Positions 34,395-40,751 of a DNA stretch of 64,000 nucleotides are shown here, piece after piece. A program made the translations under genes and the position numbers. Origin of the DNA: a virus; the IMG/VR virus record IMGVR_UViG_3300045988_176106; one strand, 5' to 3'. How positions within the stretch are numbered: the stretch's first letter is position 1; every line of letters starts with the position of its first letter. The notes beneath the pieces were generated by a model. That model was not told where the DNA came from, did not search any database, and saw only the letters and a list, made by a program, of their open reading frames with translations.

Positions 34395-34649
34395 ATCCGG
34401 GAAGCCACCACCAACAGTATCAATACGTTTATGTGGCTCGATAGTTGTCATACCCAGTAAATATAAAATATTACTACTATTTGGATTATCAAGGTCTTTA
34501 ATACCAGCATTGTAAAGATTTAAAAAATAAGAATCAATATGATGGAGCTCACAATGATTAAGCTCAAACATGATATTCTTCTTATTATGCAAAAACCACT
34601 CCTCTTGGGAGTGGCTTAATACTAATTCTCTTAAAGTTTTATATTTCAT
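34395..34649 (-). CDS. dnaE: dnaE C-terminal gene, exon 1 (own start codon; unique 60-aa leader, then the palm segment up to FPD)
   Basis: It ends ..NILYLLGMTTIEPHKRIDTVGGGFPD and joins IDSDF of exon 2. The TAA directly after GAT is intronic. Confidence 0.75.
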
Positions 34650-34660
34650 TTTATCTTACT

Positions 34661-34924
34661 TTAGAATAACTCAAGTTGAGGATTTTCATATGCCCATCCC
34701 CATACTTCAAATTCAGTATCAGATACCATTTCAATAGTGAACTTTTTATTTTTAAGAATAGAGATAATTTTGTCAACAATATGTGGCTCATATGATTCCA
34801 ATTTAAATACATGAGAATCTTTACCTTTGCTTGCTGCATCAAATATAGCATCCCAAATAGGTTTCATTATATTATTTAAACCTTCTTGGTACAATGCATT
34901 TGCTTTATCTAATTCTTGATTCAT
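34661..34924 (-). CDS. hypothetical protein (last gene of the dnaE-splitting cassette)
   Basis: 87-aa ORF. No motif recognised. Confidence 0.4.
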   Translation of the reverse strand: MNQELDKANALYQEGLNNIMKPIWDAIFDAASKGKDSHVFKLESYEPHIVDKIISILKNKKFTIEMVSDTEFEVWGWAYENPQLELF

Positions 34925-34935
34925 ATTAATTCTTT

Positions 34936-35544
34936 CTAAGTAAGTTTAAAAGTTTTTTCCCAATAATACATTAAAGGTTTAGAGCAATATTTAATATAGT
35001 CTAATGCACTAATATTTTTAGGTAGTAGGTCTACAATAGCACATATTGCAGGTCCTTCTATATAAGCAGAGTGCTTTAATGTACAATCAAAAATAAAAGG
35101 TTCGCCATCATTATATTTTTTTATTGTCTCTTCCGAGTCAGAAGAATCTTTTTTATAAATGGTAATTTCTGGCGGATTAGTATAACGAATAGGAATAAAT
35201 ATTCTTATTCTACGATCATCAAAATTATGATCATCTACATGTGGATCTACATTACAATCTTCAAAAAGATTAAATTCAATAGAGGCTATTTTATATCCTT
35301 CTAAAGCTAATATTCTATTAAATGAATTTACACCCTTTAAAAGATCATAATAACCATTAAATCCAGTCCTGTATAATGCTTCCGTATTGATTATATCAAT
35401 ACCATATACTACAGCACTACGCCAAATGCCACTATACGTATCCATTGTATTATCAAAACTTACATCTTTATACGTTTCTGCAGTTTTATGAAAATAATTT
35501 GATATAGTGGTTTTAAGCTCGTTTATTCTCTTTGGGAATATCAT
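34936..35544 (-). CDS. cupin-type Fe(II)/2OG oxygenase-like protein (Asp/Asn beta-hydroxylase-like)
   Basis: HxD...H triad candidates VDPHVDDH ... RIRIFIPI ... FIFDCTLKHSAY. Paralogous layout to the upstream ORF. Confidence 0.45.
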   Translation of the reverse strand: MIFPKRINELKTTISNYFHKTAETYKDVSFDNTMDTYSGIWRSAVVYGIDIINTEALYRTGFNGYYDLLKGVNSFNRILALEGYKIASIEFNLFEDCNVDPHVDDHNFDDRRIRIFIPIRYTNPPEITIYKKDSSDSEETIKKYNDGEPFIFDCTLKHSAYIEGPAICAIVDLLPKNISALDYIKYCSKPLMYYWEKTFKLT

Positions 35545-36103
35545 CTATATATCTTTCTTTGTAATATTTATAAATAATCCCTAAATCATTAATGGATAAT
35601 CCATCTTTGTATATATCCATTATTAGGTAGTATCCATCATTCTCTTCTTGAATAAGAGAATGTGGCTCCATAGGTTTAAATATAGAAAACTGATACATTT
35701 GATCAAGTCTATGCTCATGATCTGTATTAAACAAACATTTTCCATCAGACATAGACATTATGATTCTAAAATCAATGTATTCATTTACTTTTTCAGAATC
35801 AGAATGCTCACCAACAATAGATCCTTCTGAAAATTTATTTATCCATGCAAACCCAATTTCATTATCATATAGCACATTATCTATACCATACAAATTATTA
35901 TTCCATGAAAAAGGATATACAGGGAAAGCAGACCATTTTGACTTAGAAAAACATATATGATCTATTGCATCTACGTTTTTCTTAATAATCAATCCATTGC
36001 TATCATCATCAATAATCTTTTTACAAAAAGAATTTTCATGCATCCACTTTATGATGTTTTGAATTCTATTTTTTAGGTTTTCTGCACCCATAAAATATAC
36101 CAT
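35513..36103 (-). CDS. cupin-type Fe(II)/2OG oxygenase-like protein, paralog of 34936-35544
   Basis: IVGEHSDSE ... FRIIMSM ... FKPMEPHSL (HxD...H). The true start may be the Met at 36091. Confidence 0.45.
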   Translation of the reverse strand: MVYFMGAENLKNRIQNIIKWMHENSFCKKIIDDDSNGLIIKKNVDAIDHICFSKSKWSAFPVYPFSWNNNLYGIDNVLYDNEIGFAWINKFSEGSIVGEHSDSEKVNEYIDFRIIMSMSDGKCLFNTDHEHRLDQMYQFSIFKPMEPHSLIQEENDGYYLIMDIYKDGLSINDLGIIYKYYKERYIDDIPKENKRA

Positions 36104-38428: not shown

Positions 38429-39070
38429 TTATTTTGAACAAGCTTCGGCAAGTCGTTTTTTAAAAGTCTCAACGCCAGATTTATTTTCATCAAATAAAAC
38501 AAATGGATGAGTAACTATTGGCTTAATCTCTTGATTCATATTTGCAACATAATCTCTAATAACAGCATAATAAACATCTGTTTCGTAGTCAAATACAAAT
38601 TGGTATTTTAAATCTATAAAATCAGATTCTTCTATTCCATTCCAAAGATCATATGTAGCAATAAGAGAATTAACAATAGCGTTAACTGTAGAAGAAATAT
38701 TATTTACATCATCTTTTGTTCTACTTATTAGTTTAGAAAAACTTCTTGGGACGTAGTACATCTCTACAAGTCCTAAACCAAAACGTAATAAGCTAATGCA
38801 ATTTATAAATTCCTTAGAATTTTTATCTACAGTTTCACTTTGAGATATTTGCTCTATTGCCCAATTAAATAGGTCTTTAATAGAGACATATATGTCCATA
38901 TCAAAATCTAGATCTTCTAAGTCATTGGCAAGAAAAAACAATCTTTCACAAAGTAACGTATCGTCTTTATCTCTTTGCCATTCATTTTTTAAAAAATCAC
39001 CAAGACGTTCTTTATTAGGATCATTTACGACAAAATTGTCAAAATCATAAAAAGAAAATTTGCTAGCCAT
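38429..39070 (-). CDS. hypothetical acidic protein
   Basis: 213 aa. Its start overlaps the stop of the 69-aa ORF (TAATG). No motif recognised. Confidence 0.45.
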   Translation of the reverse strand: MASKFSFYDFDNFVVNDPNKERLGDFLKNEWQRDKDDTLLCERLFFLANDLEDLDFDMDIYVSIKDLFNWAIEQISQSETVDKNSKEFINCISLLRFGLGLVEMYYVPRSFSKLISRTKDDVNNISSTVNAIVNSLIATYDLWNGIEESDFIDLKYQFVFDYETDVYYAVIRDYVANMNQEIKPIVTHPFVLFDENKSGVETFKKRLAEACSK

Positions 39071-39279
39071 TAACAGCTCCCAATAGAGTCTGTATAACCA
39101 TGAGTATGCTCAGATAAAGCTTCTAAAAATGTACGCATATCATTAATGTCATTAATTCTAATATCATCATTAGTAGATACACGTTTAACAGATCCAGCAC
39201 CATCAGTTCTCATAAGAGAACTACTACCAGTAGTCCATTGAGGAATACTGAATCCAACAGGTTTACTTGTTTCAGGCAT
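39070..39279 (-). CDS. 69-aa peptide (Gly/Ser/Thr-rich N-terminal half; C-terminus ..SEHTHGYTDSIGSC)
   Basis: RBS AAGGGA lies upstream. It is the first gene after the dnaE-N terminator and is coupled to the 213-aa ORF. Confidence 0.45.
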   Translation of the reverse strand: MPETSKPVGFSIPQWTTGSSSLMRTDGAGSVKRVSTNDDIRINDINDMRTFLEALSEHTHGYTDSIGSC

Positions 39280-39349
39280 TTTATTCCCTTCTAAAAAGAA
39301 TTTATTATTCTATGGGATATATCTATCCACTTATATAACTTATATGATA

Positions 39350-39371
39350 AGCCACTTAATTAAAAGTGGCT
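39350..39371 (-). terminator. hairpin after the dnaE N-terminal gene
   Basis: Minus strand reads AGCCACTT-TTAATT-AAGTGGCT, 19 nt after the stop. The U-tract is weak. Confidence 0.4.
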
Positions 39372-39389
39372 ATACCTAAAAGTATTTAT

Positions 39390-40751
39390 TTACAATTCTT
39401 TATTATTCCATTCTTTCAATGGATAACCAGGAATTTCTACAAGAGGATATTTAGCACGACCACGATTTAAATATCTAGAAAATAACAGACCATAAGGAAT
39501 AGGATCAATAGCAGTCAACCCTAGCGCAAAGGATAATAAACTTCCGGCAGCACTTCCTCGCCCAGGTCCAGTCATAATATCATTATTTTTAGCATATTCA
39601 ATAATATCTTGAAGTACAAGGGGGTAAGAACTAAAACCCATTTTTTCGTAGAGACTCAATTCTTCTTCGAGTCTATCTTCATAAAGCTTTTTCTTGTCAT
39701 CTTCAAAATCTTTTGTATAAATATCATACCATGCATATGCACGATCTCTTAAAACTTTATCTGGATCATCAAATGGTTCTGGATATACCATCCTATCGCT
39801 ACTAGGTAATTCTACATTACACATTTCGGCAATTTTATTAGTATTCTTAAATGCCTCTAAATCTTCAGGATTAGAATAATATTCCTCAACAAGAACATGA
39901 TACGGTTTAACATAATACTGAGATGGCTGATAAAACATAGAATTATTATCCACATCAGAATCATCTTTTTCAGTATCTGTTAAATCAACATCTTTAACAG
40001 CCTTATTTAATTGTCCGCCAGTATTAAGCATAACAAGTTTCATATGAGAATCAGATTCCCAAGGATAAACATAATGGCTATCACAAGTAATAATCATTGG
40101 TATATCATGTTTTTTAGACAGCGCTGTTAAATTCTTATTAGCTAAATCTTGCTCTTTTAATCCAGTATAAGTCTTTTCGAGATAAAAACGGTCTTTAAAT
40201 ATATCTTTTAATATTAAAGCAATTTGTTCAGCTTCTTCTTCTTTGCCATCAAGATAAAGCTGATTTATAGGCCCACCAAGACATGCACTAGTACATATAA
40301 TCCCCTCATTATTTTCTCTTAATAAATCAAGATCAAATCTAGGTTTATAATACTTATATCTTGTCCATGCAATAGATGTAATTTTCATTAGGTTTTTATA
40401 CCCAACATTATTCATAGCGATAAGAAGGATATGGTAATTAGCCTTATATCCTTCTATTTTTTCTTTTCTTGAGCCGCTATGAAGAGTCATGTATCCTTCA
40501 TTTGCAAATATAGGTTTAATACCATATTTTTTACAAATTTTTTCTTGGTCTTTATGCCCCATCATATTGCCGTGCTCAGAAAGACACAATCCTTTAAATC
40601 CGAGAGCTTTTGCTCTTTCACAGTAATCTTGTAATTTCCCATAACCATCTAGTGGGCTAAACACACTATGCGCATGAAGATTAGTATACATACCAAAATC
40701 TTCAGGTTTAATATCTCCATTAGGATTATCAGGAGTAGATACAAAACTCAT
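39390..40751 (-). CDS. dnaE: DNA polymerase III alpha (DnaE-type), N-terminal gene: PHP domain plus first palm segment
   Basis: PHP motifs [13 protein letters not shown] and [46 protein letters not shown] aligns with E. coli [39 protein letters not shown]. About 20 unrelated aa and a stop follow. Confidence 0.85.
   Translation of the reverse strand: [453 protein letters not shown]

Follow-up and report, generated by a model that had tools for sequence, protein, structure and literature searches.

A phage dnaE divided within its palm: a conserved two-gene arrangement and the two-subunit replicase that it probably encodes

In a stretch of viral DNA of 64,000 nucleotides (nt), held as IMG/VR record IMGVR_UViG_3300045988_176106 and referred to here in its whole length as the window, dnaE, the gene for a family C DNA polymerase, is divided between two genes. 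The upstream gene, dnaE-N, ends inside the palm, past the nucleotide-binding GPGRGS loop but short of the catalytic PDxDxD strand, and the downstream gene, dnaE-C, starts with its own ATG at 34649, which is 4740 nt downstream of N, with eight co-directional open reading frames (ORFs) between the two. An initial annotation, made from the letters of the window, had already proposed a split upstream of the catalytic aspartates, a restart about 4.7 kb downstream with its own methionine and eight genes in the gap, and all of this is borne out. What we can now add is that the arrangement is shared by every relative that we compared, and we consider it likely that the dnaE of this whole clade is a two-gene C-family replicase, whose N and C polypeptides associate non-covalently. 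Assembly from two polypeptides, which was also the preference of the initial annotation, appears to be the best-supported reading of a break, a tail and a leader that are present in 30/30 loci, that evolve under purifying selection and that come with no splicing signature. The features on which the argument turns are these:

40751-39390, minus strand: dnaE-N gene, an ORF of 453 residues with the PHP domain and the nucleotide-binding half of the palm, stopping before the catalytic aspartates
39569-39552, minus strand: GPGRGS loop, N residues 395-400, kept in the N gene only
39455-39393, minus strand: conserved N tail of 21 residues, putatively what remains of the catalytic MPDIDxDF strand, other residues having taken the place of its aspartates
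39371-39350, minus strand: hairpin of 8 bp (agccactt/ttaatt/aagtggct) without a T run, read from the sequence after the N stop
34649-34395, minus strand: dnaE-C exon 1, 85 residues, with its own ATG, a conserved leader and then GGGFPD, which includes the first catalytic Asp
34568-34527, minus strand: leader motif FELNHCELHHIDSY in dnaE-C exon 1
34487-34434, minus strand: leader motif NPNSSNILYLLGMTTIEP in dnaE-C exon 1

How widely is the split conserved?

Thirty loci were compared, namely the window, L001-L028 and L030, whose N proteins are 44-99% identical, and in all 30 the N stop is followed by the C start on the same strand and in the same order, with C having a start codon of its own. The interval between the two genes runs from 479 to 8582 bp, an 18-fold spread in length, and contains 1-10 ordinary genes, while the break point stays fixed. 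The traits of a DnaE are all present across the two chains (PHP, GPGRGS, PDxDxD with a third carboxylate, fingers, HhH and an OB-like region), and the trait that is missing is that of a catalytic subunit made as a single polypeptide, in place of which there is a stop, after residue 453 in the window, and a new ATG, an arrangement kept in each of the 30 loci. An assembly artefact seems unlikely, because four contigs with distinct IMG/VR identifiers (L007, L008, L009 and L022, 94-99% identical) carry the same gap of 4739-4740 nt.

The wider protein families tell a similar story. The search with N recovered a family that extends from 99% down to 43% identity, with many members on contigs of 150-211 kb, and the 41 N homologues, which are 425-465 residues long, all have a common end point. 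A C profile retrieved about 30 clusters of proteins of 827-860 residues that are without PHP and score 860-1380 bits; from these C-type proteins there is a sharp drop to the unsplit, PHP-bearing DnaEs, which reach at most 578 bits and are about 35% identical. No fused N-C member came up in the searches with N, with the C profile or with the leader. The initial annotation had raised the prospect of an intact dnaE in related phages, and this was not what we found, since the gene is split in 30/30 loci and the nearest unsplit DnaE is as distant as just described. Among GenBank phages, megablast of the 10.9-kb region matched only 37 nt, which lie inside the putative intron 3 of dnaE-C, and tblastn with N gave at most 38.7% identity, none among the matches listed reaching the identity of a clade member; as far as such matches can tell, that collection of GenBank phages contains no member of the clade. 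On the strength of these comparisons, we take the split to be old and fixed and not a recent insertion.

What does each polypeptide carry?

The N protein matches the Pfam PHP family with an E-value of 6.5e-42 and aligns to positions 12-102 of the 260 in the DNA_pol3_alpha profile. Nine metal-binding residues are the mark of an active PHP site, and all nine (H26, H28, D35, H60, E85, H107, C157, D224 and H226) are invariant in alignment A1, which holds the 41 N sequences; because the ligands are present and invariant to the last, the PHP domain of N is probably a proofreading exonuclease. The palm part of N consists of two helices, the GPGRGS triphosphate loop and an LLFxRFLN helix. GPGRGS is the canonical triphosphate-binding motif, and its G395, R398, G399 and S400 are invariant in 41/41 N sequences, with the AAGS downstream of it invariant or nearly so in the same set, down to 41-43% identity.

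In many relatives (P0004-P0018, P0012, P0020, P0022, P0024 and P0026) there is an intein exactly at GPGRG|S of the N gene (as in P0004 and P0024), giving products of 603-659 residues, and at least two different inteins use this site. Targeting of GPGRG|S in N is as expected for a functional site.

After the LLFxRFLN helix comes the N tail, with the family consensus xGRAKxPLIEFxxYP. The initial annotation saw here about 20 unrelated residues, then a stop and a hairpin; the stop (TAA, 39392-39390) and the hairpin are indeed there, the latter not called as a terminator by a terminator scan, but the residues turn out to be related after all. Among the 41 sequences R432 and P436 never vary and K434 is kept in 90% or more, and BLAST aligns the tail onto the RVSMPDIDI strand of unsplit DnaE, the tblastn alignments between an N-tail query and unsplit DnaE reaching residue 77-78 of the query and in some cases 88. 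In Taq numbering, L437, E439 and P441 of N occupy the places of D463, D465 and D467, so that the tail looks like what remains of a catalytic strand that has lost its aspartates.

dnaE-C spans 34649 to 29935, as judged from all-frame translation and colinearity with uninterrupted homologues, and once its three introns and one intein are removed the mature product is 865 residues long (uninterrupted homologues, 826-856). Its leader carries the motif FELNHxExHxxDxY, with invariant residues across the C proteins, and in the 12 diverse members of alignment A2 the invariant positions of exon 1 are F28, E29, L30, N31, H32, E34, H36, D39, Y41, N55, S59, T78, G80 and G81. PDxDxD, which in the window is PD85-I-D87-S-D89, is invariant in C, and positions 60-148 of the C profile match residues 430-526 of Taq Pol III alpha, a span that includes D463 and D465. 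We also entertained the idea that the third catalytic carboxylate had been lost in the clade, the consensus having an 'x' at that place in P-L-W-E-D-V-P-L, and rejected it, since the residue is D or E in nearly all members.

What is left of the junction in each gene?

N and C overlap in homology over about 80 residues. When unsplit outgroup DnaEs are used as the yardstick, queries taken from the N tail (residues 2-78) and from the C head (residues 17/23-148) match the same DNA, and the C head aligns from residue 20-23 with the DnaE of mycobacteriophages and Streptomyces phages. The initial annotation had noticed a divergent second copy of the same helix in the leader, and this is supported by hhalign, which placed a leader-only profile on the unsplit segment upstream of PDxDxD with an E-value of 3.7e-5, a probability of 71% and the expected register, in which FELNHLELHxLDDYL lies on RLxxELxxIxxxxFxxYFL and NSNIAYLLGIT on GSLxxYxLGIT. 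The N profile and the C profile, set against each other, fall into the same register with an E-value of 0.0025. In the leader's copy of the loop G, R and G have been lost, leaving N-x-N-N-S-N, and there are deletions of 7 and 3 residues. We therefore describe the C leader, from one profile-profile comparison taken together with colinearity, as what appears to be a divergent version of the helix and GS-loop segment that survives intact in N.

Both junction extensions appear to be translated and constrained, neither intronic nor decaying, because the ratio of non-synonymous to synonymous change (dN/dS) has a median of about 0.2 over the blocks of tail and leader (0.25 in the tail), with 0.21 in the neighbouring canonical segment; on blocks as short as these the ratio is noisy, many pairs being saturated and 29-59 of 78 usable per block. 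A good illustration is the comparison of L011 with L013, in which the differing codons, out of 53, are 19 synonymous and 1 non-synonymous. The initial annotation had considered that one of the halves might be a decaying pseudogene, and this does not hold, both being under purifying selection with invariant catalytic or metal-binding residues.

How might two polypeptides make one polymerase?

The two proteins were modelled as single chains. The AlphaFold2 (AF2) model of N, built on the 41 sequences of A1, has a predicted local distance difference test score (pLDDT) of 86, with the PHP domain and the helices up to the GS loop confident and tail residues 429-436, in N modelled alone, below 50; its top Foldseek matches are to Taq Pol III alpha, with an E-value of about 1e-29. 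The AF2 model of the C-type homologue P0136 (alignment A5, 28 sequences) has a pLDDT of 84.5, and in it the leader forms confident helices (pLDDT 83-92), followed by a low-confidence linker, residues 77-83, that leads to the catalytic strand. Foldseek matches the C-type model to the Pol III alpha of Taq, M. tuberculosis and E. coli with E-values of 1e-30 to 1e-43, and the N model, too, matches the enzymes of these three species.

We think that the N and C polypeptides would be made separately and would then associate non-covalently, with N supplying the nucleotide-binding loop and C the metal-binding carboxylates, and with C also carrying the catalytic strand, the third acidic residue, the thumb, the fingers and the HhH and OB-like regions. 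In evolutionary terms, the fission would have duplicated the junction, leaving the overlap of about 80 residues, after which each redundant copy would have lost its catalytic residues, PDxDxD becoming PLIEF in N and GPGRGS becoming N-x-N-N-S-N in C. Both relic copies would have been retained as conserved elements, most likely at the subunit interface, a role suggested by how strongly they are conserved. What speaks most for a composite site is the contrast between N, which has no catalytic Asp but in which GPGRGS never varies, and the Asp-linked copy of the loop, which has degenerated. The data themselves show the fixed break, the conserved tail and leader, their overlap in homology, purifying selection on both and the lack of splicing signatures; from these we infer that the chains associate, that they share an active site, that the relics serve at the interface and that they arose by duplication, and the suggestion that the duplicated helix acts as a docking element is a plausible one. 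We would go one step further only tentatively, and with more doubt than belief: the relics might have been recruited as a clade-specific heterodimerisation module, made of the FELNHxExHxxDxY helices and the PLIEFxxYP strand, with the 187-residue protein encoded in the interval as a third subunit or assembly factor. On that view, making the halves separately would give the phage control over the timing of active replicase, and the radical-SAM and small-peptide genes of the interval might be linked in function to replication.

Which other explanations have to be weighed?

The main rival, possible in our view although rather unlikely, is that C is a self-contained polymerase core, with its leader in the canonical place and bearing a diverged N-S loop, while N is a separate PHP exonuclease or proofreader whose half-palm is vestigial and only a handle, or which works independently. 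There is a good deal to be said for it. The order of secondary-structure elements in the leader is canonical, and the leader is confidently folded in the model of C alone; nearly the whole of the C model can be aligned by Foldseek to Taq Pol III alpha (861 columns, 835 residues), so that the leader may, if the model is to be trusted, occupy the canonical position itself and leave no room for N's copy. The invariant Ser, S59, is kept in the leader, the PHP site of N is intact with its nine ligands, and P0230, a PHP-less DnaE-like protein, begins at the same boundary, which points to a natural domain start. (P0230 has 840 residues, is 28% identical to the window C, keeps a canonical RGSAAGS loop and may be either a gene call cut short or a distinct lineage without PHP.) The structural alignment and the position of the leader tell against a composite polymerase, and so do several further observations: the third acidic residue of the window C is Glu, not Asp; hhalign gives the comparison of N with C a probability of only 11.7%; a leader-only hidden Markov model at Z = 1e6 finds no unsplit DnaE or N protein, only C-type proteins; phmmer with the 85-residue exon, run against 1.84 billion representatives, likewise finds C-type proteins only (the leader matches are 26 proteins, always at the N-terminus); and the visible sequence is 64 kb of a genome of about 185 kb, so that a second polymerase could lie elsewhere. 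Against a self-contained C stand the near-invariance of GPGRGS and AAGS in 41 N sequences, which is hard to explain for a vestigial handle, the lack of Gly-Arg-Gly in the leader's copy of the loop together with its two deletions, and the fact that inteins still home to GPGRG|S of N. Weighing all this, we continue to favour the two-subunit replicase.

Could the two halves instead be joined after transcription or translation, by a long or split group I/II intron, by trans-splicing or by an atypical split intein? The C gene is heavily invaded, with three introns and an intein, relatives have inteins in N, and split-intein DnaE is known from cyanobacteria and from metagenomic 'fractured genes' (PMC2677866). 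We nevertheless hold it to be very improbable. Rfam, searched with E-values up to 5, gave no group I/II model near 39390 or 34650, the two edges of the interval, while the same scan scored the intron at FPD in dnaE-C at 86 bits, and the tail and leader are conserved as protein, with the dN/dS given above, which is not expected of introns. The N tail, only 20-21 residues long where even atypical N-inteins have 25 or more, begins Ala-Lys and finds its homologue in the catalytic strand of DnaE; the leader is itself homologous to DnaE and has, across relatives, no conserved His-Asn followed by Cys/Ser/Thr at its end, the residue before its conserved Thr78 being D, H, N, K, T or I with no preceding His; and Pfam finds no Hint or intein domain in either. 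A split-intein reading of tail and leader is rejected on termini, length and homology, and the initial annotation was right to see no intein or group I signature at the break. In addition, a terminator-like hairpin lies within the interval, and the ordinary genes of the interval and its 18-fold variation in length do not fit a spliced element. Scarcely credible, and the least probable of the readings that we considered, is that a recent mobile cassette broke dnaE, leaving one or both halves to decay and replication to another polymerase. Eight genes of unrelated function do lie within an essential gene and only one third of the genome is visible, but the break is identical in every relative down to 44% identity, both halves retain catalytic and metal-binding residues under purifying selection, and Pfam and PHROGs reveal no recognisable endonuclease, integrase or transposase among the eight genes. 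The GC content of the interval, 0.26-0.29, matches that of its surroundings, and no family B or other DNA polymerase is found among the large ORFs of the window, save a reverse-transcriptase-like protein. The related idea in the initial annotation, of a mobile cassette that brought a replacement gene end, fares no better, given the lack of mobility genes, the fixed break in an interval of such variable length and a 187-residue gene that sits there in 29/30 loci.

Has anything similar been described, and why does it matter?

A two-gene polymerase is unusual yet not unprecedented. The PolB of phage PhiKZ is a stable and active 1:1 complex of N and C in which the palm is split, each chain having one catalytic Asp, and the C-terminal end of its N folds together with the N-terminal end of its C (Basu et al. 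2026 preprint, PMC13648687). The likeness is that of a phage replicase from two genes, N having the exonuclease together with a portion of the palm and C the remaining palm, the fingers and the thumb, with active-site residues shared out between the chains, which in our case is a prediction. However, PhiKZ PolB belongs to family B, with a palm fold unrelated to that of family C, its junction segments are a novel insertion domain where ours look like relics of a duplicated junction, and its two genes are at distant loci; moreover, the PhiKZ complex has been demonstrated experimentally, whereas ours is known from sequence.

For the group 2.2 jumbo phages, which are T4-like, a split minimal Pol III alpha has been predicted (Iyer et al. 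2021, Viruses 13:63, PMC7824862), in which the Pol-beta-like module is divided into a nucleoside triphosphate-binding N and a Mg- and template-binding C, with the same kind of break point as here, the two proteins being predicted to reconstitute the enzyme. That minimal module is without PHP and other Pol III domains, while the architecture here is that of a full-length DnaE; its genes are far apart and accompany a family B replicase, while ours are 0.5-8.6 kb apart within the replication module; and the text of that paper mentions no overlap relics (PMC7824862).

Two Aeromonas phage systems provide further parallels. In phage 25 the products of 43A and 43B co-purify and are active, and the split is also found in 44RR (review PMC2988022), and in Aeh1 the NrdA-a and NrdA-b proteins, split by mobE, are active only with their junction tails in place (Crona et al. 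2011, PMC3045599). In these cases, as here, an essential replication-related enzyme is cut in a critical region, and the polypeptides reassemble with no splicing, as we predict for ours. Their splits, unlike ours, are young, occur in few phages and involve either a free-standing homing endonuclease or a spacer that is not translated. Both polypeptides here bear conserved tails (the N tail and the C leader); the NrdA tails derive from the inserted element, whereas the junction extensions here seem to come from dnaE itself. The Aeh1 type is also recognised by an endonuclease in the gap and an intact close relative, neither of which was found here, the nearest unsplit DnaE being the distant one noted above. 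Finally, the DnaE of cyanobacteria and the 'fractured genes' have halves with split-intein parts that undergo protein trans-splicing (Dassa et al. 2009, PMC2677866), the N part having 88-105 residues starting with Cys and the C part ending Asn-Cys, with a homing endonuclease between the halves of the fractured genes (PMC2677866). The resemblance is that dnaE is in two genes; intein termini or an endonuclease of this sort were not found at our locus. What sets the present case apart is the combination of a full-length DnaE, a split throughout a deep clade, junction extensions derived from dnaE and conserved genes nested between the halves, and in the literature searched, in which subscription journals were thinly covered, no full-length split DnaE is described in phages.

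Splitting of a replicase in its palm would now be seen in a third, unrelated combination of polymerase family and layout, which lends support to the view that fission within the palm is tolerated, and perhaps exploited, by phage replicases. The overlapping and complementarily degenerated copies of the junction would document, as few natural cases do, a way for an essential gene to be split without a dead intermediate, by the proposed route of duplication first and then the loss of one function per copy. There is a practical side as well. The halves are at risk of being labelled 'PHP domain-containing protein' and truncated 'DNA polymerase III alpha', as some database entries already label them, and a genome may then be scored as having no intact polymerase. 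A natural break point with its tails could also guide the design of two-piece C-family polymerases.

What lies between the two genes?

The interval of the window contains the following:

39279-39070, minus strand: intervening gene 1, 69 residues, with a conserved C-terminus H.H.Y.D..G(G)C and no family match
39070-38429, minus strand: intervening gene 2, an ORF of 213 residues
38422-38403, minus strand (the gene strand): terminator-like hairpin from the terminator scan, 8 bp with 6 GC pairs, then TTTCTTTT, a T run
38384-37281, minus strand: intervening gene 3, a radical SAM enzyme of 367 residues (Pfam Radical_SAM 4e-17; phrog_1802 6e-22)
37284-36721, minus strand: intervening gene 4, 187 residues, the most persistent gene between the halves
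36734-36066, minus strand: intervening gene 5, 222 residues, a spermine/spermidine-synthase-like Rossmann fold (Pfam Spermine_synth 2.5e-6)
36103-34661, minus strand: intervening genes 6-8, ORFs of 196, 202 and 87 residues

By tblastn at 1e-4, with L027 added at 1e-3, the 187-residue gene is in the interval of 29/30 loci, the most diverged relatives included and L028 excepted, and neither Pfam, run on ten members, nor a PDB profile search with the family (alignment A6) gave a homologue. It is the sole interval gene in L004, L025 and L030; in these three, successive genes overlap or abut at their start and stop codons, an operon layout typical of co-expressed subunits. Of the 30 loci, 27 have the 69-residue gene between the halves, the three short-gap loci alone lacking it, and 26 have the radical SAM gene there; what the ancestral interval held was read from such identity levels as the loci show, and not from a tree. 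Since the terminator-like hairpin stands inside the interval, N and C would seem not to be obligatorily on one transcript. A homologue of the spermine-synthase-like gene is also found in the L005 interval, and the 202-residue ORF has a faint Pfam match of cupin type (Asp/Arg hydroxylase; E-value 0.055). The 69-residue, radical SAM, spermine-synthase-like and 202-residue genes (34936-39279, minus strand) look like a modification module, and the first two recur at the same place in most relatives.

How is dnaE-C itself interrupted?

Downstream of exon 1, the C gene is made up as follows:

34394-33294, minus strand: group I intron of 1101 nt between FPD and IDSDF (RF00028, 86.4 bits, E-value 2.4e-21, at 33571-33343)
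34357-33521, minus strand: LAGLIDADG homing endonuclease ORF of 278 residues inside the FPD intron (LAGLIDADG_3 2.4e-8; phrog_4645 4.6e-59)
33293-32338, minus strand: dnaE-C exon 2 (IDSDF...GIVKL), which encloses the mini-intein
32963-32460, minus strand: mini-intein of 168 residues, CFVAGT...VHN|C, with a weak Pfam Intein_splicing match
32337-32068, minus strand: short insert 2, 270 nt, at GIVKL|DILGLK, a putative self-splicing intron (colinearity; U|...G| boundaries; fold z-score -3.06)
32067-31611, minus strand: dnaE-C exon 3, fingers (Pfam DNA_pol3_finger 3.2e-22)
31610-31369, minus strand: short insert 3, 242 nt, at KAVG|KKDAAL, a putative self-splicing intron (U|...G| boundaries; fold z-score -4.79)
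31368-29935, minus strand: dnaE-C exon 4, the end of the fingers, HhH and the OB-like C-terminal region (Pfam HHH_6 6.3e-18)

The initial annotation ended its piece at 34395, after GGGFPD, and this is a true boundary, although only that of an exon, the '|' that it wrote in FPD|IDSDF being the 1101-nt group I intron. The boundaries of this intron fit the U|...G| rule, and the junction is confirmed by P0121, a 94% identical, intron-less relative that is continuous through FPDIDSDF. In L007, L008, L009 and L022, whose N genes are 94-99% identical, the intron is about 240 nt long as against 1101 nt in the window, and the homing endonuclease ORF is a presence/absence polymorphism among close relatives. 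Across the site of the mini-intein, the uninterrupted homologue in L030 reads GGHPCGVILAD. Inserts 2 and 3 owe the name of putative introns only to the group I boundary rule (a U at the end of the exon, a G at the end of the insert), to colinearity and to fold z-scores against shuffled controls; Rfam at permissive thresholds gave no group I match on either, and they may represent a class of introns poorly covered by the curated group I model. They have in common the motif GAAGGCUG(U/A)GAUGCUAA, and a stretch of 37 nt in insert 3 (31529-31565) has 97% identity with Clostridioides phage pCD1602_4 (CP069348.1:13400-13436). Within exon 4, the match to the tRNA_anti-codon OB family is weak (2.8e-4) and below the Pfam cutoff.

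What surrounds the locus?

The region belongs to the replication module of a phage genome of low GC content (about 29%), with its genes on the minus strand, and the module also includes ribonucleotide reductase, primase-helicase, a PD-(D/E)XK nuclease, RecA, a MazG-like protein, ligase and the reverse-transcriptase-like protein. The recA gene is interrupted as well, with ORFs at 43450-42728 and 42454-42005 (minus strand) and an insert of about 270 nt between them that has a weak full-length group I match (RF00028, 18 bits, E-value 0.024); in L004 the recA insert has a Vsr-like ORF. The reverse-transcriptase-like ORF, of 678 residues (45918-47954, minus strand; RVT_1 3.5e-15, phrog_2825), has a syntenic counterpart in each relative for which the upstream flank was examined. 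Beyond it, at 48013-51698 (minus strand), is a trio of ThiF/E1-like, JAB-like and prokaryotic E2-like genes, which suggests a phage ubiquitin-like conjugation system, and in L005 the ThiF-like gene adjoins the reverse-transcriptase-like gene. Towards the other end of the window, a GC-rich island at 7000-13000 (plus strand; 0.36-0.42 versus about 0.29 elsewhere) holds ORFs of 426, 1217 and 399 residues, among which no clear family match was found, the 426-residue ORF having low-scoring Alanine_zipper and Tropomyosin matches only. Gene orientation switches near 15.6 kb.

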